From: a virus
Virus record (IMG/VR): IMGVR_UViG_3300027881_000536
Coordinates: 32,001 to 96,000 of that record
Strand: one strand, 5' to 3'
Length of the DNA: 64,000 nt
Shown: positions 1 to 15,734 of the stretch, one piece after another
Layout of the letters: every line of letters starts with the position of its first letter
Position numbering within the stretch: the first letter of the stretch is position 1
Notes under the pieces: model-generated
Told to the model about the DNA's origin: nothing
The model's input: the letters and a program-made list of their open reading frames with translations, nothing else
Database searches by the model: none
Translations under genes and position numbers: made by a program

Positions 1-3000
1 AAACAGCATGAGGAAGGTGGCCATCATCCGATAGATGACCCTATTGAGGATAGAAAACAGGATGCTGCAGATAATGCTGGTGGGTTGAGGGTCGACGAAT
101 TGATTGACCATATGTATTCGGCTCTAGGTAAGAACATGACGGCTATCGCCAATAATGTAATGGGTCACCCATTAGACCCTGAAGGGACTCATATACCACC
201 GTACTTTGACAAGCACTCACGAGTTAAACAATCAATAATCAGAGAGGGTTTGGAACTAGCGCATTTGTCACCACTGTCTCCTGATTTCAAGAAGAAGAGA
301 GGTAATAAGTCTGGTTATGATACTCCAGAAGGTGGTAGAACTAGTCAGAAGAGTATGGCTCAAATCATGAAAGTCCTTGATTTGCTTGATGAAGTAGGAG
401 TACCAAAGGGGTGGAATATCGACAATCCTGACATCATGGAGGAATTTGATAGAGTAGTTCTTCCTTATCTTGATAACAAATTCAAGAATAGTGCTCGAGA
501 TAGATTCGAGAGTTGGTTTCACACAGACCCTAAAGCCAAGTTGAGAGGGAGGGCTAGAGAATATCAATCAGCCATGGCTCATGATAATTGGTCTTTGGAA
601 GCGAGAGTAGAAGGCGAGACATCGGAACCACATGAGATTACTGAGAATCATGACATGAGTCCTTCTTGGTTATGGCACCACAGTTTACCAAAGACTGGGT
701 ATAATTTGTATGGGCCTGATATTGCTGAGATTCTCTATGGGGTTATCCCTTGTCTTGGTGAGAAGGTGAAAAATAGTGAGAAGATACTTTTCGATTCGAT
801 GGGCACTCGCCCTCCTCATTTTGACAAAGAGAAGAGTAATGAGCATCCTGATAATTATGACTATGCAGAGTGGCTAAAGGGGATTGGTAATGGTCCAGCA
901 CCAGAGACTTGGGATAATGACCCTAGTATACCATTCACAGAAAAAGGTGGTATGTCAGGTTTAGCCATGGAGATTGATGCCTATCTAAGAGGTGGTGAGT
1001 TGGGACCAATAATGGGAGAAGTCTACAAGAGATTCTACGGTGATTTACCCCTTAATCCTCACAAGGGTGATTTCGTAAGTAGACTCTTGAAAGGGCGCCT
1101 TGGGGAGGTTTATGGTGAACATGAAGAGGCTACAATGGCAGAAGACTCACCAGAGCGAGCCAGACAAATAGGTATGACAGAAATGAAAGATGTCACTGGT
1201 GAGAGTGCAGTTGGTGAGCGTTCTAGTGGGTATGGGGTTAGAGTGGCTGGACCTTCTGAAGTGACAAGGAGAAAGGAGGCTGACATAGCAGGGGCTCCAG
1301 ATACACTGCCGAAATCTATCGTAGAAAATTACCCCCTAGGTAGGCGACCTCTCAATGAGAGGATACTTAGGATGATGCTTCCTATTGCTGGTGCTAAAGA
1401 TACTTTCTTCTTGAGAGAGGCATTACAAATGGGGCTTAGAGAGCCAGCGTTACAATTGCTAGAAGCGTTACGAAAGAAATGGGGCGGGGCTGCTGTACCG
1501 AAAAATGAAATGGAAGACCGCTTACTTACTATGGATGAGGCTGTTGATAGAAGGACAGATGAACTAGGGCAGATGGTTGACAGGGCGACTATTCTAAGAG
1601 GTTCATCAGGAGGCATAGTTTTCCCTTATCATAATCGTGGCCTTATAATGCCTGCAGATACTCTGAGGATGATAGAACTAGGGCAGATGTATCCTGGCTT
1701 GGTCAACCAGAGTAACCATGACGGCTATAGGGATGAGGGGGCCAGTAGAGGTTCTGCAATTCTAGACCAACTTGGTCGTAGTGGAGTTACAGAGAACAGA
1801 GGGCTGACTGCTGCTATGTTGGGATTACTTTGCTCAGCATTGATGGGTGGTGGCTCTGCTGAACCTTGGTCATTTGAACATAGAGGGAATGAGAAGGCTT
1901 TGGTTGTAGACCACCCTGGACAATGGGGAGATGAATTCATGGGAAATTTGGCTAATTGGATTCGTAAGCAGCCACATCCACACATTGAGGGAGAGGAAAT
2001 TGGAAACCAATTAGGTGGTTGGGAGAATGAAGATTGGCGTCATCGTGTGGCTGACAAGAGATTCATCTACCCTGTCAATAAGCACATGAATGATGAGGGC
2101 ATAGAGGAATATAGATTACCTTTCAAGAAGACCGGTGGTAAGCATGGTCTGCAATTCAAGGTTCCTGATTTAGATGTATGCAGTCCTTATCCCGAGAAAG
2201 CATTAGGAGATGGATTGAGTTTTTCGCACCCATTCAGTATACAAAACCAATTGCAGGATATAGTCGGCTCCAGAGGTATCTATCCTTCTTGGACTACACC
2301 TAGAGATGGAGAACAGCATATCCAATCCATGCCTAAGCCGTGGATGGTGATTCCCAAAGAGAGTATCATAAATTACAATGGGCAAGACTATGTTGTTGCT
2401 GAACACCCTTCTGTAATCAAGGACGAGTTTAGTAACTATCTATCTGATTATGATAAGAGTCAAGGTAACAAACAACATAAGGACCTGATACTAGGACTTC
2501 GGAGAGAGGCTAAAAATATGGCTCCCAAGATGGAGGGGGGATGGGAGAAGAGTGAGAAGCAACGAGGATGGATGATGACCATGGAAATGTTGACTAGGGC
2601 TGTGGGGACAGGTCACCAAGCGGCTAAGGCCGTTTTACCTTTCATAATGGCCCACCTTGCTTCTAATCATACCCCTGATATAGAACAAGGAAATCAAAGT
2701 GAGTCTCAATGGAAGTTGGATGATTTCACGGAGAAGTATCTAAGGCAGCACAAAGGAGATACTTCTGAGGAGGCTCAAAGGAAATATGCTACATTATGCC
2801 ACTTGTACGAATTGGCTTGGAATTATGCAGACCGTCATGGCCCTGTTAAAAGAGGCTTATTCCTTGAGCAATTAGAGAAGCAAGGTCATAACTTCACTGA
2901 TGAACAGAAGGAAGGATTCCTAAGTCCTGATTTGAATGTGAACAGTGTGCAAGGTCATAAGGAATTCGTCATGCCCAAACATGGGATGGACACAAACCAT

Positions 3001-5709
3001 CCTTTCTATGAGGCCTTCCACGAAGGTATAGGGCAGAATGTAGAAGGATTGAACCTTCTGCGTGCTTTTACCAACAAACGATATGGAGATGATGAACGAT
3101 ATGAAGGATTGATGGATGCAATTGAAGATATCATGAATCAACATTTCTCTTGGGGTTCTGAATCGGTTGGTCAACCTGGCTTGGCTCCAGAGGACTGGAA
3201 AACGAAAAGCGGTCAACCTATGTCCTTCAAATTAAAGAAATTATTCGAGACTTCACAACAGGACCATGACAAAGCCATGTATCAAGCAGACCATTATGAG
3301 AAAGGTCTGGATGGAGGTGATGACCCTCTTTGGTATATTCCAGAGTCTGACGCTCCATTTTCAGATGAGCATCCTGAGCATAGGACGAAGAATGTGGAGA
3401 GGGCTAAAAGGGGTAGTAGGGCTCAGATGTCCTTGAATACAAAAAGCATCTTGAATACTGTAGGTGATGAGCACGATTCAGATTATAGTATAGAGGACCA
3501 TAGAACACTCAATCAATTCATAGTTGCTATGGGGCCTGTGATTAAGGATTTGGTAAGTGAACTAGATAAGGTTAATTATCTGCCAGAACACGCTTCACAC
3601 CAACGATTTGATGAGAATGACCCCCAAGATGTAATGAGAGAATATTGTAGACTTTTGTTCCTTCGGGGTCGTATCAATCCCAAGTATCAACCTAGGCCTT
3701 GGTCATATCGCTCTTCTGGTATGAAACAGATAGGTGATGATAGCGAGCCTGGTGTGATAAATCTTAATAGAACACGACTCTCGAATCTATCTAGTGTCCA
3801 TGCACATGATTCATTCCACCAGTCAGAAGTTATGCCTTTCACTATGGATGTCGAGAATCATATACCTGACCTTCATAGTAGAGGGTCTCCTACTCCCCCT
3901 TGGGATATTGGTGTAGGTGGTGAGTACCAGAACAATTCTCAAGACCCTACAAGAGACCAACGCTTGGGCCATGAGGAGATGCAAGAGGGAAAGAGAGATA
4001 CAGCCATTGCTACTCCCTATAGGACTGTCCACTCTAATATTCTTAATTCAGCATTCGGTCAGAGACTTGCTATTACTGGGGATAACTCTAACATTGGAGC
4101 GTCACTCCAGTATACGGAGGATGATGAGGTGAGGTATTCGTTGGATGTTTTGACTGATGTAGACTTGCTCCTGAAAGAGGAAGAAAGGGATAAGGGTAAA
4201 CCTGCTCCTGTTAAAGCCATGCATCGTATCTTTGACCTTGATGATTTAGAGTATCTCAGAGGGTTTTCTGATGATTGGGTAGTTACTTCATGGCCTGCTG
4301 GTACAAGAGTTATTGTAGAGAAGAAAGGTAAGAAGGTTAAAGCCCGAGATGCAGAAGGTAAATCTGTTACTCTACCCAATGAAATTAAGACCGGTGTTAA
4401 AGATGCTCATGACAAGGATTTCTTAATAGATGCCATTTGGGATGAAGACAGATTATGTATTGTGGATATCTTGGAATGTGAAGATGATGATTTGTGTAAT
4501 AAGCCCACCAAAGATAGAGTCAGGCATCTAAGGGCTCACTTTGAGTCTACTGAGAAGGTTAGTACTCCAGCACCAGTAAATACGAAGAGAGTTGATGGGC
4601 AGGGTCTCAAGAGAGCAGTCAAGGACCTCATGAAGGAACCTGATGTAAAGCAGGTCCTATTGAGAGATGCTGAGTCCACTTACATGCGTGGAGAAATGAG
4701 GCACCCAAAATGGGTATTACTTACGCCAGACCATCAAATTGATGTTTTAATTCTATCTTCCTCTGGGGTTGATAACCATCTGATTGGAGTTGGGCCATTG
4801 TATGAACAGGATGCTAAGGCAATTGGTAACAGGGCGGTTCGTTATGATGGGGATTATTACATGGATGTAGGTACAGTCTCGCGTTCAGGTTTGGAAGAGG
4901 GGATGTACATAACTGTGAAGACATCAGGTATTTCTCATTCGGCTAGAAGGAATTATTCAGTTTACCGATTAAATGCACCTCGTTATCTGAGAGAATCTGA
5001 GAGTGGAGCGACTGACAGTGTAGAGACTTTGGAGATACTGCGTCACAGGCAGGAAGGTAATGTACCTCACAAGGTTCGGATTAAGAAAGGGAGAATCCAC
5101 ATAGATGTACCTACAGGACATGTAGTCTATGAAACAGAAGTGTCTGGGAATGCATTTCTTTTGAAAGATGTAGATTCCCCAGATGATTATACTCTAAGAG
5201 TGACTCAAAGCCAAATGGAATATTGGTCACCGCTGGCTGCAGTTCTTTTGCGTTCTGAAAGAGAGGGAGAGAAGGAAGAGATAGAACCAGAGCCTGCGGC
5301 TAATCATGATAAGAAGCCAAAGAAGGTGCTACCGAAAAGAGATGAGTTGCTCAAAGACCCTGAAGTCGTCAAGACTGTAGTTCTAGCATTAGAGACAGTA
5401 GATGGTATGCTCAAAGAGAAGGTTACTTGGACTGGTCCTAAGGCTCTAGGTATTGATTATGGTACTCCCATAGAATCACCTCATGGGCCTACTGATATAA
5501 CTGAACCATATGATATGCCTGACCATGACCCTGCTGCTAGACAGTCTGAACCTAAGGCATGTTGGTGTGGTGCTGAAAAGGGAGAAGAATGTAAACAAGG
5601 CATGGGTCACGATATGGAAGATTGCCCCAAGGCTAGACCACCAGATAGTGATGAAAAGCCAGAACATCTCACCGTTTCTCAGGATTCTCGCGATGTTTCT
5701 TCCGTGTGA
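1..5709 (+). CDS. Giant head-module protein (>1900 aa, 5'-truncated) with a C-terminal degenerate ATP-dependent DNA ligase-like domain and a terminal Cys/His cluster
   Basis: Frame 1 is open from base 1, so the TTG at 85 is not the true start. About 4200-5050 reads like ligase motifs I/III/IIIa/IV/V (VTSWPAGTR, FLIDAI, IVDIL, KQVLLRDAESTYMRG, KWVLL) followed by an OB-like segment. The C-terminus has CWC..C..H..C. It lies directly upstream of the prohead protease. Confidence 0.75.
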   Translation, partial: KQHEEGGHHPIDDPIEDRKQDAADNAGGLRVDELIDHMYSALGKNMTAIANNVMGHPLDPEGTHIPPYFDKHSRVKQSIIREGLELAHLSPLSPDFKKKRGNKSGYDTPEGGRTSQKSMAQIMKVLDLLDEVGVPKGWNIDNPDIMEEFDRVVLPYLDNKFKNSARDRFESWFHTDPKAKLRGRAREYQSAMAHDNWSLEARVEGETSEPHEITENHDMSPSWLWHHSLPKTGYNLYGPDIAEILYGVIPCLGEKVKNSEKILFDSMGTRPPHFDKEKSNEHPDNYDYAEWLKGIGNGPAPETWDNDPSIPFTEKGGMSGLAMEIDAYLRGGELGPIMGEVYKRFYGDLPLNPHKGDFVSRLLKGRLGEVYGEHEEATMAEDSPERARQIGMTEMKDVTGESAVGERSSGYGVRVAGPSEVTRRKEADIAGAPDTLPKSIVENYPLGRRPLNERILRMMLPIAGAKDTFFLREALQMGLREPALQLLEALRKKWGGAAVPKNEMEDRLLTMDEAVDRRTDELGQMVDRATILRGSSGGIVFPYHNRGLIMPADTLRMIELGQMYPGLVNQSNHDGYRDEGASRGSAILDQLGRSGVTENRGLTAAMLGLLCSALMGGGSAEPWSFEHRGNEKALVVDHPGQWGDEFMGNLANWIRKQPHPHIEGEEIGNQLGGWENEDWRHRVADKRFIYPVNKHMNDEGIEEYRLPFKKTGGKHGLQFKVPDLDVCSPYPEKALGDGLSFSHPFSIQNQLQDIVGSRGIYPSWTTPRDGEQHIQSMPKPWMVIPKESIINYNGQDYVVAEHPSVIKDEFSNYLSDYDKSQGNKQHKDLILGLRREAKNMAPKMEGGWEKSEKQRGWMMTMEMLTRAVGTGHQAAKAVLPFIMAHLASNHTPDIEQGNQSESQWKLDDFTEKYLRQHKGDTSEEAQRKYATLCHLYELAWNYADRHGPVKRGLFLEQLEKQGHNFTDEQKEGFLSPDLNVNSVQGHKEFVMPKHGMDTNHPFYEAFHEGIGQNVEGLNLLRAFTNKRYGDDERYEGLMDAIEDIMNQHFSWGSESVGQPGLAPEDWKTKSGQPMSFKLKKLFETSQQDHDKAMYQADHYEKGLDGGDDPLWYIPESDAPFSDEHPEHRTKNVERAKRGSRAQMSLNTKSILNTVGDEHDSDYSIEDHRTLNQFIVAMGPVIKDLVSELDKVNYLPEHASHQRFDENDPQDVMREYCRLLFLRGRINPKYQPRPWSYRSSGMKQIGDDSEPGVINLNRTRLSNLSSVHAHDSFHQSEVMPFTMDVENHIPDLHSRGSPTPPWDIGVGGEYQNNSQDPTRDQRLGHEEMQEGKRDTAIATPYRTVHSNILNSAFGQRLAITGDNSNIGASLQYTEDDEVRYSLDVLTDVDLLLKEEERDKGKPAPVKAMHRIFDLDDLEYLRGFSDDWVVTSWPAGTRVIVEKKGKKVKARDAEGKSVTLPNEIKTGVKDAHDKDFLIDAIWDEDRLCIVDILECEDDDLCNKPTKDRVRHLRAHFESTEKVSTPAPVNTKRVDGQGLKRAVKDLMKEPDVKQVLLRDAESTYMRGEMRHPKWVLLTPDHQIDVLILSSSGVDNHLIGVGPLYEQDAKAIGNRAVRYDGDYYMDVGTVSRSGLEEGMYITVKTSGISHSARRNYSVYRLNAPRYLRESESGATDSVETLEILRHRQEGNVPHKVRIKKGRIHIDVPTGHVVYETEVSGNAFLLKDVDSPDDYTLRVTQSQMEYWSPLAAVLLRSEREGEKEEIEPEPAANHDKKPKKVLPKRDELLKDPEVVKTVVLALETVDGMLKEKVTWTGPKALGIDYGTPIESPHGPTDITEPYDMPDHDPAARQSEPKACWCGAEKGEECKQGMGHDMEDCPKARPPDSDEKPEHLTVSQDSRDVSSV

Positions 5710-5741: not shown

Positions 5742-7130
5742 ATGCTGATGATGGAAGCACCGCTAGACAGCCCTATTCTCATCAAAGGTAGGACTGGAGA
5801 CCTAGTTGTTGCCGGCTATGCTTCAGTTGAAATGGTCGATAAACAAGGGGACCTGATAACTAAGGGCGCACTACGAGAAGCATTCAAGAAATTCATGGGT
5901 TCTCCAGGCTTTAGGAATGTGCAACTGGCTCATTCAAATATCCAAGTTGGTTCTGTCATTCCTGAGTATTCGGATAGTAGTGGGCGTGTCTGGAAGTCTG
6001 AAGTAGACGATACTGGTATGTTCGTAGTTATCCAACTCCGTGATGATATCGAAAAGGCTCGTGAGGTAGCCGCAGAAATCCGAAAGGGTAACCTCAAATC
6101 ATTTTCAATAGGTGGGCAGGCTTTCGAGCGTGTCAACAAGAGTAACTCCGAGAGAGGAGATTACCGAGAAATACGCAGGATGGAACTGCATGAAGTTACC
6201 ATCTGCGAGAAGGGCATCAATCCAGAGGCCCAATTCCGAATCCTGAAAGAGGATAAAATTGAAATAAATAAAGGTGAAAATATGACAGATGCAATGACAG
6301 AACTACAGGATGTCTTGGAAAGGTTATCCAAGAGGCTAGACGATGTTGACGAGGCTGAGTCTGCCCTGAAGGGCAAAGACGATGCTGAGAAAGGCAAAGA
6401 CGATGCTGAAAAGGAAGACAAAGAAAAGGCTGATGTAGCAAAGGACAATGAAGACAAAGAATCTTCTGAGAAGTCTGAGAAAACGGAAAAGATGGACGAT
6501 GTGATTACCACAGAGTATCTTGACTGGCTAGAATCGACTGTGAAGTCTGCTGGGTATGACCCATCGGCTGCTCGCGGTCACTTTGATAACACAGAGGGAG
6601 TCGAAAAGGCTTACCTCCAAGAGGGTGCTCATGGTTACGACCATCGTGGACAGGGTAGTATCGAAGGCGCTGGTGAGGATGACTCCGGTAAGCGACCCAA
6701 GATGAATATGGGTGCAGGACCGAGTGGTAACAAAACCGTCATCAAGACAGATGAGTTCATCCATCCGGAAATGGTTTCCTCTGCACAAGTAGAGGAAGCA
6801 TATCAGGTCTACAAGGCCGCTGCTCTTGAGCAGCAGTTCAAGTCTGACCTAGGCAACAACTTCTCAATAAGATTACAAAAAGAAATACAGAATAGTCAGA
6901 ATGAGACCGAGAGGTCATCATTCGATGCGCGTGGGCCTCTACAAGACCTACAGAAAGCAGTTCTCGCTCTAAGCGGTAGGATTGAGGATGTTTCCACCAC
7001 ACCTGGTGAAGATTTCCAGAAATCTGCAGATGCTTCGAGAGTAACTATTCCTGAGACAACCGAGATGGCTGCCTTGTCGTGGGACGATGTCCACCGACTA
7101 GCACACTCGGCTCTAAGGGGTGATAACTGA
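5742..7130 (+). CDS. Prohead protease (HK97/XkdF-like) fused to a C-terminal scaffold region
   Basis: N-terminal VAGYAS..VDKQGD, catalytic-type LAHS and SFSIGG, and HEVTICEKGINPEA. The C-terminal half is acidic/coiled-coil-like. It lies immediately upstream of the capsid gene with TGATG coupling. Confidence 0.88.
   Translation: MLMMEAPLDSPILIKGRTGDLVVAGYASVEMVDKQGDLITKGALREAFKKFMGSPGFRNVQLAHSNIQVGSVIPEYSDSSGRVWKSEVDDTGMFVVIQLRDDIEKAREVAAEIRKGNLKSFSIGGQAFERVNKSNSERGDYREIRRMELHEVTICEKGINPEAQFRILKEDKIEINKGENMTDAMTELQDVLERLSKRLDDVDEAESALKGKDDAEKGKDDAEKEDKEKADVAKDNEDKESSEKSEKTEKMDDVITTEYLDWLESTVKSAGYDPSAARGHFDNTEGVEKAYLQEGAHGYDHRGQGSIEGAGEDDSGKRPKMNMGAGPSGNKTVIKTDEFIHPEMVSSAQVEEAYQVYKAAALEQQFKSDLGNNFSIRLQKEIQNSQNETERSSFDARGPLQDLQKAVLALSGRIEDVSTTPGEDFQKSADASRVTIPETTEMAALSWDDVHRLAHSALRGDN
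6282..7130 (+). CDS. Putative nested in-frame scaffolding protein (282 aa, MTDAMTELQ...)
   Basis: In-frame ATG at 6282 is preceded by GGTGA (6273-6277), the same RBS motif used by neighbouring genes, and sits where the protease domain ends. Confidence 0.6.
   Translation: MTDAMTELQDVLERLSKRLDDVDEAESALKGKDDAEKGKDDAEKEDKEKADVAKDNEDKESSEKSEKTEKMDDVITTEYLDWLESTVKSAGYDPSAARGHFDNTEGVEKAYLQEGAHGYDHRGQGSIEGAGEDDSGKRPKMNMGAGPSGNKTVIKTDEFIHPEMVSSAQVEEAYQVYKAAALEQQFKSDLGNNFSIRLQKEIQNSQNETERSSFDARGPLQDLQKAVLALSGRIEDVSTTPGEDFQKSADASRVTIPETTEMAALSWDDVHRLAHSALRGDN
6372..6409 (+). repeat. 21-nt period tandem repeat in the scaffold (KGKDDAE x2)
   Basis: GGCAAAGACGATGCTGA occurs at 6372 and 6393. Confidence 0.9.
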
Positions 7131-8275
7131 TGGCGCGTAATTATGTAAGGACAATACAGGACATGGAGCGATACTACTACGGTGGTACCGCATTGACCGG
7201 GTACACCTACAGCAGTGGAGATATACTCAAGGCGGATGCACCGCTTCTGAGCACCACGGCTGGTACCTACCAGGCAATCTATGGCAGGAAGGTTTGGTCG
7301 CAGTTGAATCAAGAGTTCAACGCGTTCAGCATCCTACCAAAGAAGCCGTGGGAGCGAAGTGGATGGCGCATCATAACTGCCAAGCCTTCGTTCGATGTTG
7401 GTGGAGGTCTGGCTGAGAACGCCACACTGCCCGACACCACGAAGCCTGACTTCCTGCATGTGGCTGCAAAGCCCAAGACCATTGGCCACTCGTTCGACCT
7501 GAGCGAAGTGTCCATGTTCCTTTCCGATAAGGATGATGGTCTCGGAGATGTGCGCCAAGTGCTCAAGGAAGAGATGGGGAAGCACCACGCTGACCACATC
7601 AACAGGATGCTATTGGTAGATGTCGAGACCCCAGCGGGTAACGACTTCGAGTCACTGGACCGACTAACCTCGGACCCAGACTCGATGACAACTGGTACAG
7701 GCCATGTGAGTGCTACTACAGACCACGACCTATACTCTATCACACGCGATGGGAGTTCCGACTTCCACAGTGCTGAGGTAGATGTGTCGGCTGCGGCTAA
7801 CACTAACAGGAACCTAAGCCTGAATCAACTGGACGGATTGTTCCAGCAGATTTGGGTTCGAGGTGGTAACCCCAAGGTCATGCTGACTGGGTACGATACC
7901 CTGATGCGTGTGCAACAACTACTGCAGAGCCAGCAGAGATTCATGGAATCGAAGAGGGTCACCCCCACCTACAACGGTGTGAAGGGTGTGCCTGGTATCG
8001 AGGCCGGATTCATTGTGGCTACCTACAACGGCGTGCCGCTGATTCCGTCCAAGGATGTAGTAACTGACACGAGTGGAATCTCGAGGATTTACTACTTTGA
8101 TACGGACTACTTGTGGTTCCAGACTGCTATACCGACCCAATATTTCGAGTCGGGTATCGAAACCGGCGACCCGTTCGCCATCAACAGACTAGGCCAAGAG
8201 GGGCTCTACCGAACCATGGGTGAGGTATGGGACTCTTTCTTCGGCGCAGGAGGTTCTATCCGTGACCTTAAGTGA
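7130..8275 (+). CDS. Major capsid protein, HK97-like fold
   Basis: 381 aa directly after protease/scaffold. The C-terminal pattern YNGVPLIPSKD...IYYFDTDYL fits HK97-type capsid proteins. Codons are visibly skewed to C-ending, as expected for a highly expressed gene. Confidence 0.88.
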   Translation: MARNYVRTIQDMERYYYGGTALTGYTYSSGDILKADAPLLSTTAGTYQAIYGRKVWSQLNQEFNAFSILPKKPWERSGWRIITAKPSFDVGGGLAENATLPDTTKPDFLHVAAKPKTIGHSFDLSEVSMFLSDKDDGLGDVRQVLKEEMGKHHADHINRMLLVDVETPAGNDFESLDRLTSDPDSMTTGTGHVSATTDHDLYSITRDGSSDFHSAEVDVSAAANTNRNLSLNQLDGLFQQIWVRGGNPKVMLTGYDTLMRVQQLLQSQQRFMESKRVTPTYNGVKGVPGIEAGFIVATYNGVPLIPSKDVVTDTSGISRIYYFDTDYLWFQTAIPTQYFESGIETGDPFAINRLGQEGLYRTMGEVWDSFFGAGGSIRDLK

Positions 8276-8307
8276 GGTTTATGGAGAGATAACAGAGGTG
8301 ATATGAT

Positions 8308-8721
8308 ATGGCAGTAACATTTACGAGAAGCACAGGAAGCGGCGGAGTAATGACCGTCGACTTGGAACTAGACCTATATGCAGGGGCTTTGGGCTCCGAT
8401 ACAAGGTGGCTGGACGGCGCAGCAGGGGCAGCAGACGCATACCCCGGTAGTCTGACAGGCTTTACAGCAGCAAACGATGATACAACAAATACGGCAGGAC
8501 GAGGACTGAAACTAGTTGTGGGTACTTGCACTTTGGTGCAGGACAACAACGCCTTCACAGTTGGTGGAGATGGTGACACAGTTCACGCAATAGTGGTTGG
8601 CGGCTCAGGAGTCGCAGCGACATCTTGCTCAGTAGACGCAGGGCTTGGAACAGGGATAATCACCTTCGCTTGCGAAGGAACCCTTTCTGGAAGCACCGGG
8701 TTTATGGCGATAGTATCTTGA
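8308..8721 (+). CDS. Small Gly/Thr/Ala-rich virion protein (possible capsid decoration)
   Basis: GAGGTGA RBS, position after the capsid gene, beta-rich composition. Confidence 0.5.
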   Translation: MAVTFTRSTGSGGVMTVDLELDLYAGALGSDTRWLDGAAGAADAYPGSLTGFTAANDDTTNTAGRGLKLVVGTCTLVQDNNAFTVGGDGDTVHAIVVGGSGVAATSCSVDAGLGTGIITFACEGTLSGSTGFMAIVS

Positions 8722-8736
8722 TTGAGGTGACCCAGC

Positions 8737-9075
8737 ATGCCAACACTACTTTGGAGAGGCCCTAAGCGGGCTGTCCGTACTAAGTACGGGTACTATGACA
8801 GGCACACACCAGTGGCTGTTACCCAAGTATGGTTGGATGAGCGACGCGGAGCATTTTCAGGTGACCATTGGCAAATTGAAGATGACTACCCCGGCGTTCT
8901 CTTTGCAGAGAATACTGATGACGGCCTACCAGACAACGACTGGTTGAAGGCTGACATCAAAATCTGGCTAGAGAACAATGGGGTGGAAGTCTCGTCTATT
9001 CGGACAACGAAGGCGACAATGTTGACAATGGTAACTGAAGTCTTGGCGGACGGGGTTACTACCGAGGAGGAATAA
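8737..9075 (+). CDS. Head-module protein with a C-terminal HeH/LEM-like helix pair
   Basis: GAGGTGA RBS. WLKADIKIWLENNGVEV...TKATMLTMV resembles a helix-extension-helix motif. Confidence 0.5.
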   Translation: MPTLLWRGPKRAVRTKYGYYDRHTPVAVTQVWLDERRGAFSGDHWQIEDDYPGVLFAENTDDGLPDNDWLKADIKIWLENNGVEVSSIRTTKATMLTMVTEVLADGVTTEEE

Positions 9076-9077
9076 TT

Positions 9078-9344
9078 ATGGCATTTAGTTTTACAATAGA
9101 CCAAAGACCCAGTACAATGGGAAACCTACTAATGGTATTCGGCACATTTACCAACACTAGCAGCACTACGGGGGGCGACATTGATTTGTCATCCCTCTTG
9201 AATGAGATAGTTTCAGCAGGTGCTAACGGCGACGGTGCGGGTGCTACTGACACAGAGATTGACGGGACTGCTGCGGCAACCCTGACTCTTGTGGTAGCAG
9301 GCGGCCTCGACGGAAAGTGGTGGGCAATGGGACGCCGTGGCTGA
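9078..9344 (+). CDS. Small beta-rich virion protein (possible head fibre/decoration)
   Basis: GAGGAGG RBS, 88 aa, VFGTFTNTSSTTGGDIDL, tight operon packing. Confidence 0.5.
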   Translation: MAFSFTIDQRPSTMGNLLMVFGTFTNTSSTTGGDIDLSSLLNEIVSAGANGDGAGATDTEIDGTAAATLTLVVAGGLDGKWWAMGRRG

Positions 9345-9360
9345 TTGGGGGTAAGACCCC

Positions 9361-9534
9361 ATGACAGATACTAAGATATACGAGTTCAAGCCTTCCGAGG
9401 CAATAGAACTTGGCGCTTCTGTGGCCGGTGGCATACAGAAGGTCTTGGATGACTACACAAACGGTAAGACAGTAGAAGGGATTACCAGTTATTTAATGCT
9501 GGGAAACCTATATGTCGTGGTTGTCACCGCTTAA
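9361..9534 (+). CDS. 57-aa hypothetical protein (MTDTKIYEFKPSEAIELG...YVVVVTA), not in the ORF track
   Basis: Manual translation. GGGGGT RBS; fills the gap between 9344 and 9545 exactly. Confidence 0.75.
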   Translation: MTDTKIYEFKPSEAIELGASVAGGIQKVLDDYTNGKTVEGITSYLMLGNLYVVVVTA

Positions 9535-9544
9535 GGTGACGACT

Positions 9545-9817
9545 ATGGATGCTGAAGACCTTCGACGCTTGTCCAAACAAGGGTGGAACTACGCAACCGG
9601 CGAGAGCGTTCGTACAGAAGCAGGGTCTGACGAGCGCCTCGCTGGCCAAATTGGTGAGCAAAATCTGCGCTCACGAAACATACGAGATGTCATAGACATC
9701 GGCAGTGGTACCCGCTGTAAGCACTGCGGCATGCTCCATTTCTGTTACTTGGAGCGCTGCGGTGCTTGCAGCAAGCCAATGGAGTATAATCTAGGAAAGG
9801 TGGATGTGAAGGTATGA
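9545..9817 (+). CDS. Zinc-ribbon protein (CxxC-x10-CxxC)
   Basis: CKHC...CGAC. Start placed at ATG 9545 behind AAGGTGA rather than 9512. Confidence 0.7.
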   Translation: MDAEDLRRLSKQGWNYATGESVRTEAGSDERLAGQIGEQNLRSRNIRDVIDIGSGTRCKHCGMLHFCYLERCGACSKPMEYNLGKVDVKV

Positions 9818-10521
9818 AATGTGATGTCCATTGGTGCAATGCTCTGAGTACCGGAAATTCCAGGTGGTGTGCAGTACACCAAGATGAGTATGAGCAGCAA
9901 GGTCCTGATTTGCAAAGGGCAGAAGGCCCATACCCACTGGATATATCTTTCGCAATATTGAAGCAAGGGTGGGGTGCAGCCATAACAGGGGGCTTGAGTC
10001 CGCTATATGATAAGGCGAAGCAATTCGGTGAGCGAATGGATAATGCAGCAATGGGAATGGTTCCGTCAAGCCAAGTAAGAGAAGGTGACCCGACTTATAC
10101 TGGTGGTACCAAGCAAGGTTGGGGTGATTCCATAATGGAAGTAGGGAATGAAATTCAGGATACTGCTCGAGAGGCTTTTGTGGACCCAGTGCAACAAGCG
10201 ATTGGGGAACCGGGTAACCCACTTGCTGAAGAGGGTATGGTAGATGCTGGTACAGGTTTACGAGGGAAACTAGGAAGATTCAGAGAGAAGGTAGGGCATA
10301 AGTTACTTGGTGAGAAGGACACGAGTAGAAAAACTGGAATACTCAAACCGTTGTGGTCTGCGAATGTAGTTACAGACGACAAGACTAAACAGAAGTACAA
10401 GCAATCCCCATATGCCCCTCGATTTGCGCGTAGAGAACAACTTACTGTTGCTGAGCAAAACAATCCAGGGTCAGTAGACCCGCAGAAAATCAGAGATTAT
10501 GAAAAGACGAGGATGATATGA
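9814..10521 (+). CDS. Hypothetical protein with an N-terminal Cys/His cluster; candidate capsid cargo
   Basis: ATGA overlap with the upstream gene; C-x4-C...C-x2-H; contains LDISFAILK-QGW. Confidence 0.6.
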   Translation: MKCDVHWCNALSTGNSRWCAVHQDEYEQQGPDLQRAEGPYPLDISFAILKQGWGAAITGGLSPLYDKAKQFGERMDNAAMGMVPSSQVREGDPTYTGGTKQGWGDSIMEVGNEIQDTAREAFVDPVQQAIGEPGNPLAEEGMVDAGTGLRGKLGRFREKVGHKLLGEKDTSRKTGILKPLWSANVVTDDKTKQKYKQSPYAPRFARREQLTVAEQNNPGSVDPQKIRDYEKTRMI

Positions 10522-10522
10522 T

Positions 10523-12136
10523 ATGCCAATAGTATTCCAGACAGGTGAACGCGAGCCTAGACCTCTGTTCCCTAATGACCTAGTTTATTCCAGTGCTCAG
10601 AAGGTAGCAGACATTCTACAGATTCCACTCCCTGACCCAGTATATCTCACAGCGGATTCTAACACCAGCGCTACTTCTGCCAAGATAGTCCCTGCTGACC
10701 AACGCATAGTTGGGTTTGAGGTTGGAGATAGTGTAGAGATAGCGAGTGATGTTGAGATGGGAGAGACTGTAGTCCTAACTAGTGTTGCTCGAGACGGTAC
10801 TGATGTGGTACTATCATGGAGTGGTGGAGTCACAGGGGACTACGATACTGCTGACAATGCTACTATTCAGAATCTACAGTCATTCACTAACGGTAAGCGG
10901 AGGGGGGTAACCCGTTCTGCCGTAGAGACTATGATTCTACGCATGCAAGACAAGATAGATAACCTCTGTAACAATTCATGGAGGCCAATGCTGCAAACAG
11001 CAGAGTATCTCAATTTCGACACATACAAACCCTACAGGAGAAGGTACTATACTGACTATGTAGGTACAGTTCCACTCATGTTCCGCAATGTCCAACAGAT
11101 ACTGAGACTGGAAATATGGCAGGGACAGGAGTACAGAGAAGTAGGTTCTGCAGAGGCTCGACTCAAGATACTCGATAATTCCCTACTTACCACTGACGAC
11201 TATGTGTTTCTTTGTCCTGGGAGTGGTGGAGTAGCCTCTTTACGGGTTGGTAGTACATCCAGTACATGGAGTAATGCATTCGATGTAACTACTACTGCAC
11301 AGGAACTCTCAGACCTCATTAACAAGGACCTAAGGAAGGGTAAATCGGGTGCAGCATTCTCACCTTCATTCACACTCCAGACAGCCAATACTGCTACTGG
11401 GGTAGAGACAGCCAATGTCCATCATGAGTTCATGACTTCTGCTAACGCTGATTATGGCACAGGGCAAATCAAACTGACCAGTATGCATCGTGGTGAAGGT
11501 GGAGAGAACTCTACTGTGGCTATTACTAATCACACTGGTATGAGCATCACTGGTCTGACAGACACCGTCCTCACAGTGACTGGTGTATCAGGTAGTTCTG
11601 GTAGTGCTACAATCACACTAGCCGATACTTCTGCCTTGGTGCCCTATGGTATTATCTGCATTGGTACGGGCACTGCTGTCAAATGCGCCTATTATACAGC
11701 AAAGACTGCCACTACACTCACAGGAGTGACTGACTTGGCTAGCAGTGGCCTTGTTGCGGCACTGTCGAATGGGACTGATATCACACAGTATGCACTCAAG
11801 ATAGACTATTTCGGTAGCACCACAGGAGATGAGGCTAGGCTTCGTGACTGGTGGTGTGACTATGACCTAGGTATCATCTACTTCAACAACACTTACCCCT
11901 ACTTCCAATGGAACTCAGTGAAGGCTACCTATGTCTATGGTGAGCGATATGTTGAAAAAGCAATAGAGGATATTTGTACCAAGATGGTAGCCATGGACCT
12001 GCTCTTGTCTGATGACCGTAGCGTCCTAATGCCTGAAGGGACTCAGAACATAGACTTAGGTTCCAAGTACCAGTTGTTCAAGCAACAGGTTGCTGAGACA
12101 CTACCTCGTTACATGGAGGTGATTAACATTGACTGA
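10523..12136 (+). CDS. Head-tail adaptor (gp6/gp15-like) with large insertions
   Basis: Position between head and tail genes. C-terminal GIIYFN...VKATYVYG...KAIEDICTKMVAMDLL fits adaptor proteins. Confidence 0.6.
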   Translation: MPIVFQTGEREPRPLFPNDLVYSSAQKVADILQIPLPDPVYLTADSNTSATSAKIVPADQRIVGFEVGDSVEIASDVEMGETVVLTSVARDGTDVVLSWSGGVTGDYDTADNATIQNLQSFTNGKRRGVTRSAVETMILRMQDKIDNLCNNSWRPMLQTAEYLNFDTYKPYRRRYYTDYVGTVPLMFRNVQQILRLEIWQGQEYREVGSAEARLKILDNSLLTTDDYVFLCPGSGGVASLRVGSTSSTWSNAFDVTTTAQELSDLINKDLRKGKSGAAFSPSFTLQTANTATGVETANVHHEFMTSANADYGTGQIKLTSMHRGEGGENSTVAITNHTGMSITGLTDTVLTVTGVSGSSGSATITLADTSALVPYGIICIGTGTAVKCAYYTAKTATTLTGVTDLASSGLVAALSNGTDITQYALKIDYFGSTTGDEARLRDWWCDYDLGIIYFNNTYPYFQWNSVKATYVYGERYVEKAIEDICTKMVAMDLLLSDDRSVLMPEGTQNIDLGSKYQLFKQQVAETLPRYMEVINID

Positions 12137-12398
12137 TGACATATTCAAGAAAGCAAAGGAGGGTCTTAAACCAACAATACAGAATGTTAGAAAGCAATCT
12201 ATCTGGTCACCTGAAGGGAGAATGTTTCTAGATGCTGCTGCTAGTGCTGCAGGATACAAGGCTGATGACGCCGGTAATCTCATAGATGAGAGCGGGCGTG
12301 CCCTACCCAAGGAGCACGCGGATTACCAGTGGGTTAAGAGTATGGCAGAGCGTCAAGCAGCAGTGGAAAGTCCAATCGGTAGGGAGTTGTTAGAATGA
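12129..12398 (+). CDS. 89-aa hypothetical protein; candidate capsid cargo
   Basis: TTG start with GGAGGTGA upstream; overlaps both neighbours; N-terminal FKKAKEGLK. Confidence 0.6.
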   Translation: MTDDIFKKAKEGLKPTIQNVRKQSIWSPEGRMFLDAAASAAGYKADDAGNLIDESGRALPKEHADYQWVKSMAERQAAVESPIGRELLE

Positions 12399-12790
12399 GT
12401 GCGTTTGACTTGACTTGGATTAATCTCAAGAAAGCATGGTATGACAACGAGGATTTTCGTGGAGACCCAGATGATGAGGAGGCTCATAGGCGGGGAGAAG
12501 AAGAGGACCATCAAAATTGGCTGAATGACCCTAAGAATCAGGACGATAGTCCTAACGAGAGGGTAGATGCCCCCACCTTGGATTCTAATCACATCTTGAG
12601 GTTGACTAGACCACAACTGGATAAACTTATGGAGGACATTCAAAGTGAGATTCAGCGTAGAGAGACTAAAAAAGCCAACAAGAATGTGGCTGTTGTCAGT
12701 AACAGCCCAAGAGACCTGAGTAGCGACCCTTCCTCACCAGCAGGTAAAGATTGGATAAAGAACAACTCTTGGGCATTTGATGGTGGTTGA
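12395..12790 (+). CDS. 131-aa acidic hypothetical protein; candidate capsid cargo
   Basis: ATGA overlap; N-terminal FDLTWINLK-K. Confidence 0.65.
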   Translation: MSAFDLTWINLKKAWYDNEDFRGDPDDEEAHRRGEEEDHQNWLNDPKNQDDSPNERVDAPTLDSNHILRLTRPQLDKLMEDIQSEIQRRETKKANKNVAVVSNSPRDLSSDPSSPAGKDWIKNNSWAFDGG

Positions 12791-12791
12791 T

Positions 12792-13229
12792 ATGGCTGAA
12801 TCCATAGAACTTTTGGTATCATTATTCGACACGAGTTGGAATCGTGCTAACAGTGGTCAGAGAAAGCCAGTGATAATGGACATCACCACACTAGACCCTG
12901 GTAGAGGTAAGAGGTTCGACCTTAACCGCAGTGATGCCGTTTTTATGTATGAGACTGCTCATAACGAGGAGCAACCTGAGATATTCTATGACTATGTCAA
13001 CACTCGAATCAATGTAACCATCGACATACGAACTACACGAGGTAGAAGTCATTTGATGAATATGGAAGATGAAGTGAGAAGAATCATTCATAGTAAGAGA
13101 AAAGGGGACGCTGGTAACTACGACCGACTACTCTATAAGACGAGGACTGACTTGTCAGATAGGACCAAGCATCTACATAGAATGACCTTTCAGGTCGAAA
13201 TCGTAATATTCAGTGAACTAGTCGCATAG
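12792..13229 (+). CDS. Putative tail terminator/completion protein
   Basis: About 145 aa with an alpha/beta pattern, just upstream of the tail tube gene. Start placed at ATG 12792. Confidence 0.5.
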   Translation: MAESIELLVSLFDTSWNRANSGQRKPVIMDITTLDPGRGKRFDLNRSDAVFMYETAHNEEQPEIFYDYVNTRINVTIDIRTTRGRSHLMNMEDEVRRIIHSKRKGDAGNYDRLLYKTRTDLSDRTKHLHRMTFQVEIVIFSELVA

Positions 13230-13240
13230 GGTGAGAGGAC

Positions 13241-15205
13241 ATGCCGCAGACAATCTACAAGGGCGATTTGGCCGAAGTAACTCTCGGTCACGAAACAGGA
13301 ATAGTACTAACACATGGGGCCTGGGGTGGGCTTACTGTCACCGCCGCATCTAATGGCGACACTACCACTTTGACATTCAGTGGAGTCGCTATCAATACCA
13401 ACGGAAGCCATTCTTCGTATGATACGATGTTTTTCAGGGCTCAAGAGTTGAAATATCCTAAGGGTCTACTCGCTGGCTCCAAACTGAGAGTTAAGGGTGA
13501 TGGTAACTACAGTGATGATGACCACACTAAAGGTAATATGTATACTATTGTTGCTAATGAAGGTAATACTCTCACAGTAACTCCTGCTATGAAAAGGACA
13601 GGTGCCTCTACCACTGGTGATGAGTTCATGATTGAGACTCTGGGAACTCCTACTCTAGATGCAGGTATGATTTATAATAGTAATGCACAGACCAGTGATG
13701 AGTCAGTTCTCACTGACCAGTTTATCGGTTTGGCTGCTGAAATAACGCTTCCAGAAACCAAGGTTGAAGTCTTTCGTTCCCACATCGTGGGTGTAGGGAG
13801 GCAAGTTGTAGTTCAGGAGCCTCAGCACATGGATAATGAAGGAGGCTCCCTATCTACTATGATGCATAGTGCACGATGGCTCTACTACGCCCTTGGTAAC
13901 GAGGCTGTGAGCGAGACTAATCCAACAGGTGCAGCATCAGTGGATAGTGGTACTAACACAAGTGCTATAGCCATGGGTGATACCTATGTCTCATTCCTAA
14001 GGGCGAATTCTAACGGCACAGTGAATGGTTCTTTCCCTGCTATCGGTGATTATATTACTGTAGAGGACACTACTGAAGTCTTAACTCCTTATGCTACTGA
14101 GCCCACTGCTAGAACTAAGTGGACTGGTACACAGACCCAATTCCATAGCAGTGAAAGGTCAGAGATAAGGAGGGTGATTGCTACAGATAGCACTAACACC
14201 CACAACCGTATCTATGTAGATGACCCATTCAATTTTGACCATGCCGCTGGTGCAGTTGTAAGAAAGATAGTTATGGCAGATAATGCTGACACTGGGAGTC
14301 CTAATTTTCTTACTACTACTGCTGCTTATGGGCAGATTGAGAACAGACAGAAGAGAGCCATGTGGAGTATGTGGCATCAACCTTCTTTCTCTCTAGAGAC
14401 CAGTATGAGGAGTCGAGATGTCGGTTCCTATGGTACAGAGCAGACTTCCAATGCACCTGGGTCATCGACGGACACAAAGCAACTCACTCGAGTTTACAAG
14501 GGCTGTAAGGTCAAGTCTTGGCAACTCACTGCTGATGCAGATTCAGAGGTCAAGATGAAGGTCGACTTCGATGCACTGATGTGCTATACTGATACTGGTC
14601 GTCTAGAGGATTCTAATCCTGGTGACAGGTACACTGCTCATAGGATGTTCGAGAATATCGCTAATGGGCCCTTGGAGAGGAAGACGGCTGGTATTGCTCC
14701 CAATACTGAGAAACCGTTCTTCTTCTATAATGGTACAATCACTGCTTTCGGCACCAATCTAGCCCAAGTGACCAAGTTTGAGTTGGGTGGTGAGAACAAT
14801 ATTGCTCAACACCTAGTTGTTAGAGGCAACCCAGCGGTAGAACCCCGTAACACTGCTGGCCAGTCCTTGGAACAGATACCCTTCGCTGGTAGCAGGAACC
14901 CTTCACTGGCTGTTGAGGGTAAAGTGGAGTATAACCTAAAGATAGAGATTCTACCTACTGACCCCCTTCTATGGCATGAGTTTAGAAGTGCTAGAAGTAA
15001 AGGCTACAGTGAACCTATCACGCTGCATCTAGTCAAGGATGGAGCAGGGAGTGACAGAGAGGAGATATATGTCATCATAGATGATTACATCATCACCGAG
15101 GCCCCTCTACAAATCCCTGAGGATAAAGGGGTCATCAAGCATGAGTTGACAATACTTCCGAAGCATGTTAAAATTCTAGCATATGATGCGTTGTTGCATT
15201 CTTGA
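13241..15205 (+). CDS. Major tail (tube) protein with inserted accessory domains
   Basis: Synteny (terminator - this gene - chaperone - tape measure). Tube-like beta segments (ITLPETKVEV, PSFSLE, GCKVKSWQLTADADSEVKMKVDF). No separate sheath gene was recognised. Confidence 0.65.
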   Translation: MPQTIYKGDLAEVTLGHETGIVLTHGAWGGLTVTAASNGDTTTLTFSGVAINTNGSHSSYDTMFFRAQELKYPKGLLAGSKLRVKGDGNYSDDDHTKGNMYTIVANEGNTLTVTPAMKRTGASTTGDEFMIETLGTPTLDAGMIYNSNAQTSDESVLTDQFIGLAAEITLPETKVEVFRSHIVGVGRQVVVQEPQHMDNEGGSLSTMMHSARWLYYALGNEAVSETNPTGAASVDSGTNTSAIAMGDTYVSFLRANSNGTVNGSFPAIGDYITVEDTTEVLTPYATEPTARTKWTGTQTQFHSSERSEIRRVIATDSTNTHNRIYVDDPFNFDHAAGAVVRKIVMADNADTGSPNFLTTTAAYGQIENRQKRAMWSMWHQPSFSLETSMRSRDVGSYGTEQTSNAPGSSTDTKQLTRVYKGCKVKSWQLTADADSEVKMKVDFDALMCYTDTGRLEDSNPGDRYTAHRMFENIANGPLERKTAGIAPNTEKPFFFYNGTITAFGTNLAQVTKFELGGENNIAQHLVVRGNPAVEPRNTAGQSLEQIPFAGSRNPSLAVEGKVEYNLKIEILPTDPLLWHEFRSARSKGYSEPITLHLVKDGAGSDREEIYVIIDDYIITEAPLQIPEDKGVIKHELTILPKHVKILAYDALLHS

Positions 15206-15215
15206 GGTGAAAGAT

Positions 15216-15734
15216 ATGGCAAGATGGAGTTTACATCCTGGGGGTAGGGGAAAAGCCCCTTGGAAGAAGAAACTGGCAGCGGCTGAGCCTGAGCCTGAAC
15301 CTGAGGTGGAGGAAGATTTCTTCAACCCAGAATATGCAGTAACTGACAATAATCCATTCCCTGAAGAACTAATGACAGAGACTGATGCTGTTACTGTTGC
15401 CGAGGAAGTGCAGATGGCTGCGGCGGTAGAACTTGAGCCTGAAGTAGAAGAGGTTGTAGAGCCTGAAGTAGAAGAGGTTGTAGAGCCTGAACCTGAACCT
15501 GAACTTACATATGATTCCATGACTGTATCACAGTTACAAGACCTATTGCGTGAGCGTGGTCTGACTGTTAGCGGAGTCAAGGCGGAACTTGTTGCCCGCT
15601 TGGAAGCAGATGATGCTGGCCCCTCGGAAGAGGCTCCGGCTGAAACTGTAGAGACCCCCTCGGAAGAGGCTGTCTCTAGCGACGAGGTGCCCCAGGAGGG
15701 CGAAGTAAGTGAGTCAGGAGGAACAGAACAATAA
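15216..15734 (+). CDS. Acidic Pro/Glu-rich protein with a SAP (HeH) motif
   Basis: YDSMTVSQLQDLLRERGLTVSGVKAELVARLE matches the SAP consensus. GAGGTGA RBS before ATG 15216. Confidence 0.8.
   Translation: MARWSLHPGGRGKAPWKKKLAAAEPEPEPEVEEDFFNPEYAVTDNNPFPEELMTETDAVTVAEEVQMAAAVELEPEVEEVVEPEVEEVVEPEPEPELTYDSMTVSQLQDLLRERGLTVSGVKAELVARLEADDAGPSEEAPAETVETPSEEAVSSDEVPQEGEVSESGGTEQ
15435..15491 (+). repeat. 24-nt tandem repeat (EPEVEEVV x2 plus partial), followed by CCTGAA hexamers
   Basis: GAGCCTGAAGTAGAAGAGGTTGTA at 15435 and 15459. Confidence 0.95.

Follow-up and report, generated by a model that had tools for sequence, protein, structure and literature searches.

Encapsulin cargo-loading peptides are short, terminal peptides carried by unrelated cargo; they bind the lumen of an HK97-fold shell, work from either end of the cargo and do not need to be cleaved. 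In phage T4, the prohead protease gp21 cleaves after glutamate. The T4 capsid targeting sequence (CTS) is a short N-terminal peptide that forms the sole conserved part of diverse, fast-changing accessory proteins (PMC3012670). In phage P1, at most the first 30 residues of the giant 250 kDa DarB protein suffice to send it into the capsid, and the Dar proteins have no common consensus tag (PMC9024508). For polyvalent phage proteins, which combine several modules and are encoded among virion genes, packaging and processing have been proposed (Iyer et al. 2017, PMC5512222).

We describe here a peptide, termed the tag, that heads more than 100 unrelated, fast-changing proteins in an abundant marine archaeal virus group. 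The window (the whole 64,000-nucleotide stretch of DNA analyzed, to which all coordinates refer) belongs to a 118-kb genome of a magrovirus-like archaeal tailed virus. In the surface ocean, few archaeal viruses are as abundant as magroviruses, the majority of whose genes have no known function. The tag has the consensus (M-N-)P-h-[DEN]-x-A-W-x-h-L-K or, in its fuller form, (M-N-)P-[MLIF]-[DEN]-x-A-W-x-[LVFI]-L-K, and is followed by a Pro/Glu/Gln-rich linker. Its DNA pattern was found in 111 stretches of IMG/VR, 99 of which carry homologues of the studied genome; among the remainder, all nine that were tested encode the same capsid protein at 64-74% identity. A literature search found no paper on this tag.

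Tags were scored with an ungapped, 10-column matrix (PSSM) built from other genomes only. This matrix was adopted because a 16-column motif model, run as a local search in HMMER, cut alignments short and gave true tags low ranks. Reversed translations of the whole genome were used as decoys (top score 8.3 bits), since decoy scores from mononucleotide-shuffled genomes were inflated, reaching up to ~14.

The studied genome holds ~13 tag copies, each on the structural strand and each at a protein terminus. A six-frame scan of the 118 kb gave 12 matches scoring 12.9 bits or more. Every one of them is on the + strand and in a real frame, and lies no more than 56 residues from an ORF start or four from an ORF end. 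The core W-x-h-h-K was observed 13 times against 2.5 expected and, near N-termini, eight times against 0.37. The tag is carried by 13 of 49 + strand genes vs none of 44 replication-strand genes (p = 1.2e-4), and tagged genes are co-oriented with their neighbours in 682 cases vs 4. In the related contigs, 471 copies were counted (361 at the N-terminus, 23 behind a Cys/His module, 79 at internal positions and 8 at the C-terminus), and the 232 distinct tagged bodies fall into 105 sequence clusters, across whose representatives only A, W, L and K are near-invariant. The tag lies exactly at the start codon in 58 of 81 canonical cases. Internal copies occur in polyprotein-like ORFs of relatives, with up to three copies per ORF at the census threshold. 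Two of the C-terminal copies have no Lys (AWGVLG-stop and AWGLLRG-stop), and a spacing variant, W-x-x-L-L-K, is present too; cleavage is thus not the sole constraint on the tag. Between pairs of tags, identity is 0.67 for the first two codon positions and 0.42 for the third, and several synonymous codons encode each of P, A, L and K; this free variation at third positions indicates selection on the peptide. The tag exists, then, as a position-specific and modular element, found lineage-wide, selected as a peptide and confined to the structural strand. An earlier sequence-only reading of this DNA had proposed that variable proteins encoded among the head and neck genes share one portable signal, and hundreds of unrelated ORFs support that proposal, well beyond the cases noticed there.

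That reading began from three small ORFs of the window, whose surroundings are as follows.

9512 to 9817, + strand: conserved 101-aa CxxC...CxxC protein, homologues in 62 loci; left edge of slot A
9814 to 10521, + strand: ORF 9814, 235 aa, tagged, in variable slot A
9814 to 9933, + strand: N-terminal Cys/His module C..HWC...WCAVH, before the tag of ORF 9814
9934 to 9963, + strand: tag copy P-L-D-I-S-F-A-I-L-K of ORF 9814, Phe variant, PSSM 14.6 bits
10523 to 12136, + strand: conserved 537-aa structural protein, phrog_17057, in 53 loci; right edge of slot A and left edge of slot B
12129 to 12398, + strand: ORF 12129, 89 aa, conserved untagged small structural-module protein, homologues in 27 loci at 26-45% identity
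12395 to 12790, + strand: ORF 12395, 131 aa, tagged orphan, in variable slot B between the conserved 89-aa and 150-aa genes
12395 to 12430, + strand: tag copy M-S-A-F-D-L-T-W-I-N-L-K, residues 1-12 of ORF 12395, diverged variant at the start codon, PSSM 9.9 bits vs the decoy maximum of 8.3
12777 to 13229, + strand: conserved 150-aa protein, phrog_19972; right edge of slot B
13241 to 15205, + strand: tail tube protein, Phage_tube_2 (Pfam, 7e-08); a third tag slot lies behind it in relatives

The strings FDLTWINLK, LDISFAILK and FKKAKEGLK, quoted as evidence of a motif shared near the N-termini of ORFs 12395, 9814 and 12129, are all present where they were reported. ORFs 12395 and 9814 do share one 10-12-residue peptide, which is part of the lineage-wide tag. 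ORF 12395 opens with MSAFDLTWINLKKAW, and its N-terminus, MSAFDLTWINLK, resembles the tag heads MSAFNSAWTLLK and MSAFETAWGVLK of two related loci (L010 and L043); it has no homologue among 80 related loci. The copy in ORF 9814, PLDISFAILKQGW, sits at residues 41-53, behind the Cys/His module and not at the extreme N-terminus. Such a module followed by P[LM]EKAWxFLK recurs in loci L030, L042, L043, L047 and L053 (23 such cases overall), and the slot-A proteins of the closest relatives bear LELSFDVMK, MEIAFESFTK and LEMSFAVVK. ORF 9814 itself has a single partial homologue among the 80 loci (L002, residues 1-81). The third ORF drops out: FKKAKEGLK, at residues 6-14 of ORF 12129, scores 4.6 bits and is not a tag instance, the homologues have N-termini such as MKDIIKKAI without A-W..L-K, and the gene is an ordinary conserved member of the structural module.

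Tags are concentrated in a few hypervariable slots within conserved blocks of head and tail genes. Among genomes, the length of slots A to C ranges from 10 to 1750 bp (slot A itself from ~10 to 1750 bp), the third being the interval between the tail-tube homologue and the next conserved gene, where 52 tags lie in the related loci. The largest hot spot, with 131 copies, is directly upstream of a membrane operon, outside the head module. A left-end cluster of seven tagged genes possibly consists of early genes, a possibility that counts against packaging. On the same side of the balance, no tag was seen in the 41 kb that surround the head genes of the halovirus relative HCTV-1.

Pfam searches of the 105 body representatives returned HD and DUF6321 only, and neither Pfam nor PHROGs matched the giant proteins (3038 and 1874 aa) or the bulk of the tagged bodies. 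In the tagged NUDIX family, the linker from tag to fold varies from 3 to about 85 aa, and an AF2 model of a tagged NUDIX protein, of low confidence (mean pLDDT 59.9), places the tag in a separate helix at residues 2-12. We propose that the tag forms a short amphipathic helix, which a flexible linker connects to accessory proteins that are very diverse and for the most part lack annotation. Most bodies are acidic and poor in hydrophobic residues, in contrast to the basic internal proteins of T4, and this too counts against packaging. So does the load, which is heavy: the tagged set of the studied genome totals ~6200 aa, including the 3038-aa protein with an N-terminal tag.

The genes expected to build and process the head are as follows.

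5742 to 7130, + strand: prohead protease, Peptidase_S78 at residues 22-170, fused to a helical scaffold domain (Pfam and PHROG matches)
5772 to 5786, + strand: P-I-L-I-K15, candidate N-terminal processing site of the protease; P-h-h-L-K-[GS] is kept behind a variable 10-aa head
6234 to 6248, + strand: F-R-I-L-K169, protease-scaffold junction and candidate autocleavage site; has Ar-x-h-L-K in common with the tag
7130 to 8275, + strand: HK97-type major capsid protein, 381 aa, phrog_24667 at 1e-55
7220 to 7231, + strand: D-I-L-K34 before A35, candidate capsid maturation site, ahead of the capsid fold

Many short hydrophobic-Lys sites had been pointed out in the capsid, protease, scaffold and giant proteins (GDILK, PILIK, SALK, TVIK, QFK, FQK, LLLK, GMLK). 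As a class they are what chance would give, and the loose motif is not enriched in head genes, with hydrophobic-Lys at 13.7 per 1000 aa in head-module vs 18.0 in replication ORFs and hh-K at 4.1 vs 5.0. By our estimate, chance would place roughly one h-L-K tripeptide in every protein, which counts against the processing model. Only three of the sites, P-I-L-I-K15, F-R-I-L-K169 and D-I-L-K34, are nevertheless invariant or nearly so in orthologues. Two of them border the S78 core, one in each predicted flexible flank, and the third precedes the capsid fold; they are retained down to 40% protease identity. K15 shows conservation of at least 90%, falls in a segment (residues 1-18) with pLDDT below 50 and reads FLLK-S in a lineage of 62% identity. 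F165-K169 is invariant in 23 orthologues of 50-86% identity, is followed by an indel-rich linker and falls within a second segment of pLDDT below 50 (residues 158-184). In the AF2 model of the protease-scaffold, residues 21-155 form the folded core and long helices begin at 182; AF2 confidence was modest (mean pLDDT 60-63). In the most distant lineage the junction site is YTILK, and it is colinear with GIAAMK of HK97 gp4. The capsid protein is 34% identical to those of the haloviruses HCTV-1/HVTV-1, with similarity starting at residue 28; its [DE]-[IL]-L-K-A-D is kept down to 62% identity, and the HCTV-1 capsid protein has GNVSK-ADNILDTTDAGY colinear with D-I-L-K34.

The HK97 gp5 sequence has K103-S104, and gp4 has a colinear ...AAMK after its FPANEQA strand. 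K103-S104 is the known maturation cleavage position, where the S78 protease of HK97 cuts with Lys at P1. A literature search found no published account of S78 specificity other than the HK97 sequence, and no confirmation of the cleavage behind a hydrophobic-x-Lys motif that the earlier reading ascribed to phage K/A511-type viruses. The full-tag matrix is negative at the capsid and protease sites (MCP -7.7, protease N-terminus -1.8, protease junction -3.1), which match the tag in the last 3-5 residues only, and the link between tag and protease is circumstantial.

Judged from these sequence patterns, the tag most likely marks its carriers for capsid loading and for trimming by the head protease, and there is, in our judgment, an about even chance that it is a capsid-targeting and processing tag in the manner of the T4 CTS. 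Like the CTS, which is borne by IPI-III and Alt and removed by gp21, it is one short peptide on otherwise unrelated bodies (here 105 clusters), and its carrier genes are hypervariable among relatives; its h-L-K end, which recurs at the three invariant protease and capsid sites, may be where the head protease cuts. The differences are that there is no sequence similarity, that the protease here is of the S78 family with an apparent Lys at P1 and the tag ends in Lys and not in Glu, that the hosts are archaea, that the tag is also internal and C-terminal, and that 105 body clusters make a far larger repertoire. By such comparison the tag would be an analogue of the CTS and is not a member by homology. 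The 3038-aa giant with its N-terminal tag recalls P1 DarB; unlike the P1 Dar proteins, all carriers here share one consensus. HK97 gp4 belongs to the same protease family, Peptidase S78, and HK97 gp5 has Lys directly before its mature N-terminus, whereas HK97 has a delta domain in place of the fused scaffold and no known tagged cargo set. The multi-tag ORFs of relatives, whose modules are uncharacterised, look similar to polyvalent proteins, but they lack catalogued effector domains (HD and DUF6321 being the only Pfam matches), and their joints bear a defined tag and not a dedicated metallopeptidase.

We infer the docking partner, the cleavage behind Lys, packaging and injection as parts of the following model. 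During prohead assembly, the tag would dock its carrier to an internal component, which may be the scaffold domain, the conserved N-terminal segment of the capsid protein or the protease. The S78 prohead protease would then cut behind the terminal Lys of the tag, freeing the body within the capsid and splitting multi-tag proteins into modules, and the cargo would exit together with the DNA. ORFs 12395 and 9814 would be two such cargo genes. One tag thereby delimits an entire class of accessory proteins, encoded here by about a quarter of all structural-strand genes and spanning more than 100 protein families lineage-wide, and predicts a shared fate for its carriers, namely particle loading and then delivery to the host. 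If packaging is correct, the tag provides a sequence-based catalogue of candidate injected proteins for uncultured archaeal viruses, and archaeal viruses would have their first capsid-targeting signal, none having been found earlier in a literature search. The same search found no virion proteome of these uncultured viruses; the prediction of packaging is testable without a host through heterologous procapsid assembly.

The tag could instead be a docking peptide, a short linear motif for which cleavage is unnecessary, that recruits its carriers to some hub other than the capsid interior, such as a host chaperone, a proteasome activator, a replication hub or the viral membrane/GTPase operon. 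We consider this unlikely. It would accommodate the N-terminal, internal and C-terminal positions of the tag, the C-terminal copies that lack Lys, bodies that are disordered-like proteins and enzymes (NUDIX, HD) that might function in the cytoplasm, and the top hot spot of 131 copies just upstream of the membrane operon. It sits poorly with the limitation of the tag to viruses with this capsid and protease family, with its absence from all 44 replication-strand genes and with the many slots between head-completion and tail genes; moreover, an invariant Lys followed by a variable linker suits a processing site, and Ar-x-h-L-K appears again at the protease junction.

Packaging might also proceed by another route. 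The tag may be the viral counterpart of an encapsulin cargo-loading peptide, with direct binding to the HK97-fold capsid protein, on its luminal face or its conserved N-terminal segment, wherever in the cargo the tag is placed, a reading we hold to be rather doubtful. The likeness lies in the occurrence of the tag at either end of its carriers, with internal copies as well; encapsulins differ in being cellular compartments without DNA or protease. If true, an archaeal virus would carry into its host a large and quickly exchanged arsenal, drawn from more than 100 protein families with nucleotide hydrolases and the 3038-aa protein among them; the tag would connect viral capsids mechanistically with encapsulins in a living system and serve as a ready-made label for protein delivery.

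It is improbable that the tag anchors accessory proteins on the virion exterior (as head decoration or on the neck or tail) in the way that N-terminal anchors hold exchangeable tail spikes. Slots A to C do lie among connector and tail-tube genes, and their contents are swapped among close relatives as in receptor-binding modules, but ten residues are very short for a stable structural anchor, the small, acidic, hydrophobic-poor bodies are seldom folded domains, and NUDIX/HD nucleotide hydrolases and multi-tag polyprotein-like ORFs are unlike fibres. Quite improbable, too, is an amphipathic helix for membrane targeting. Such helices function at either terminus, and on the Kyte-Doolittle scale we calculate a helical hydrophobic moment of 1.56 for the consensus; the strict conservation of P, A, W and L-K together with acidic tag residues nevertheless indicates specific protein recognition, and the net charge of the tag is about zero vs basic in typical membrane-targeting helices.

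A DNA-level recombination linker for cassette exchange, with the peptide as a by-product, is very improbable: tags do stand at cassette borders in hypervariable slots, and C-terminal copies beside N-terminal ones resemble recombination scars, but 36 bases at such divergence are too few for homologous recombination, and the idea was rejected on the codon evidence, third positions being near random (0.42) and synonymous codons varying while the amino acids are kept. That the three N-terminal peptides have nothing in common but a hydrophobic residue before Lys, by chance, is scarcely credible as a whole, for while the loose motif without enrichment in head genes and the untagged ORF 12129 agree with it, independent scoring and hundreds of orthogonal instances support the tag in ORFs 12395 and 9814 and refute chance for these two of the three ORFs.

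The window covers bases 32001-96000 of one virus record 118,155 bp long. The structural genes lie on the + strand up to approximately position 48,000 of the window, with giant ORFs among them, while the replication genes occupy the - strand. The large terminase, portal and a 2395-aa protein are encoded farther upstream in the genome. The structural set includes the following:

5742-7130, +, S78 prohead protease fused to scaffold
7130-8275, +, HK97-type capsid protein
13241-15205, +, tail tube protein

The capsid proteins of the haloviruses HCTV-1 and HVTV-1 are 34% identical to that of the window, and more than 598 relatives at 72-97% identity occur on marine IMG/VR contigs, in agreement with how magroviruses, which belong to Marine Group II archaea, are described in the literature (PMC5434244).

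The sequence-only reading proposed that three small ORFs, here named by their starts, share a hydrophobic-Lys signal that recruits cargo to the prohead and is clipped by the protease. All three quoted peptides were found in ORFs 12395, 9814 and 12129. Window ORFs were searched by tblastn against 80 related loci, among which ORFs 9512, 10523, 12777 and 13241 were conserved everywhere, ORF 12129 was kept in 27, ORF 9814 had one partial homologue and ORF 12395 had none. ORFs 9814 and 12395 occupy hypervariable slots (A and B, respectively) of ~10 to 1750 bp across genomes. Every ORF in the relatives' slots was listed; their bodies, meaning the protein outside the shared peptide, are unrelated, and nearly all start with M-N-P-[MLIF]-[DEN]-x-A-W-x-h-L-K, hereafter the tag. 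The head of ORF 12395 (MSAFDLTWINLK) is the same as MSAFNSAWTLLK (related locus L010) and MSAFETAWGVLK (L043). In ORF 9814 the tag is a Phe variant (PLDISFAILK) located downstream of a Cys/His module, a layout seen in five other loci. A common motif is borne out for ORFs 12395 and 9814 and falls away for ORF 12129, which is untagged together with its homologues and begins with a different conserved helix.

Several slot-A proteins have their own Cys/His module ahead of the tag, and directly 5' of that slot is a conserved 101-aa protein (window 9512-9817, +) whose C-terminal part has a CxxC…CxxC motif resembling a zinc ribbon. Relatives have tagged ORFs in the slot that follows the tail tube gene; here it is filled by an untagged, acidic 183-aa protein (window 15183-15734, +) with Pro-Glu repeats and a clear SAP domain at residues 110-142 (Pfam E = 7e-14).

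A 10-column scoring matrix, derived from 72 unique tags taken solely from other genomes, was run across the complete genome translated in all six frames. Twelve matches reached 12.9 bits or higher; each is on the + strand in a real reading frame and lies no more than 56 residues from the start of an ORF or 4 from its end. ORF 9814 scored 14.6 bits and ORF 12395 9.9, against a maximum of 8.3 in the reversed translation. The core W-x-h-h-K was observed 13 times versus 2.5 expected from residue shuffles, and 8 times versus 0.37 near N-termini. The sequence-only reading had named an excess over replication ORFs as its own test. The full tag shows this excess, with 13 of 49 structural-strand and 0 of 44 replication-strand genes tagged (p = 1.2e-4), but the loose hydrophobic-Lys motif does not, its frequency per 1000 aa being 13.7 for head ORFs and 18.0 for replication ORFs. 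Tagged proteins of this genome include:

genome 1008-1484 (L081), NUDIX hydrolase
two DnaJ-type zinc-finger proteins
a 680-aa protein
genome 5784-14900, 3038-aa protein with an N-terminal tag and a W-x-x-h-L-K spacing variant at the C-terminus
5' of the terminase, two ~500-aa proteins with C-terminal tags

All six database homologues of the NUDIX hydrolase are tagged too, the tag being retained while the linker to the fold varies from 3 to ~85 residues. An HD-domain protein of a relative (L179) is also tagged; both proteins are candidate nucleotide-signal degraders. C-terminal tags occur on long ORFs outside the window (L081/L082; genome 5574-5760, 21169-22749, 22719-24209 and 5784-14900), with the endings …AFDVAWESLKT-stop, …AMDDAWSFIKGVHC-stop and …PLEQAWALLKIG-stop, and directly downstream of some of these ORFs is a gene tagged at its N-terminus.

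A degenerate DNA pattern of the tag matched 111 stretches in IMG/VR, where well under one match was expected by chance (~7e-13 per position, our own estimate). Homologues of this genome were present in 99 of them; contigs of nine of the remaining 12 were tested, and each of the nine encodes this capsid protein, at 64-74% identity. A census with a minimum score of 15 bits counted 471 copies (361 at N-termini, 23 behind a Cys/His module, 79 internal and 8 at C-termini), with five hot spots and an orientation matching that of neighbours by 682 to 4. Internal copies, [GS]-E-P-M-[DE]-I-A-[WFYM]-[QR]-L-L-K, number at most three per ORF above this threshold and divide modules like the joints of a polyprotein. 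The 232 unique bodies formed 105 clusters, among whose representatives Pfam recognised only an HD domain and DUF6321. Polyprotein-like ORFs with three to four tag-like joints each were seen in related contigs L092, L181, L134 and L104; in three of them the C-terminal end is a conserved, very basic ~80-aa module (…KYREQLNxERRxRGIYGKGGxDVSHxxGGKLTLExxHSNRARHF…), and that of L104 ends in KFKVYPSAYANGWAVQYCKGK instead.

Selection acts on the tag peptide and not on its DNA, since third codon positions are almost free (identity 0.42, versus 0.67 at positions 1 and 2) and P, A, L and K are each encoded by several synonymous codons. In a low-confidence AlphaFold2 (AF2) model the tag forms a detached helix spanning residues 2-12. 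Pro, Gln and Glu are enriched in the 30 residues on the C-terminal side of the tag, and bodies are poor in Ile, Leu, Val and Trp, with 77% acidic.

The protease-scaffold protein has two conserved motifs with an h-L-K end: P-h-h-L-K15-[GS], preceded by a variable head, and G-I-N-P-E-A-x-F-R-I-L-K169, followed by an indel-rich linker. Because AF2 folds residues 21-155 and gives pLDDT <50 at 1-18 and 158-184, both are invariant sequences within flanks predicted to be flexible. Their counterparts in the most distant lineage (40% protease identity) are FLLK-S and YTILK-M. The capsid protein retains [DE]-[IL]-L-K34-A-D down to 62% identity, with VSK-AD at the colinear place in HCTV-1. In HK97, the model S78 system, gp5 has K103-S104, the known cut position, and gp4 has a colinear ...AAMK. 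What the protease and capsid sites have in common with the tag is limited to their last 3-5 residues, and their scores on the full matrix are negative; the h-L-K sites are suggestive, not proof, of a tag-protease connection.

We favour a capsid-targeting and processing tag, a reading we consider about evenly probable, because of its likeness to known capsid signals and the established theme of effectors packaged in phage heads (PMC5512222). The closest pattern is the T4 capsid targeting sequence, which alone is conserved among the otherwise diverse internal proteins that T4 injects (PMC3012670), and the tag also resembles the capsid signal at the N-terminus of the giant P1 DarB protein (PMC9024508). 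That the tag instead serves other docking functions is a less probable alternative, kept in view by its position independence, C-terminal copies without Lys, the heavy total load and a large hot spot that lies away from the head module. The motif is unmentioned in the magrovirus papers examined, and searching the literature for capsid targeting in tailed viruses of archaea gave no hits.

Two further loci near the portal were observed. HCTV-1 (L085, NC_021330 64830-74560) encodes 1046-, 675- and 1210-aa proteins between portal and protease (MuF-like; zeta-toxin domain), a position held here by the 2395-aa protein, whose C-terminal part is window 85-5709. Between large terminase and portal, a 481-aa ORF (genome 25614-27059; L082:10614-12059) has a homing-endonuclease-like region matching a PHROG HNH endonuclease (7e-11) and, weakly, LAGLIDADG_3.
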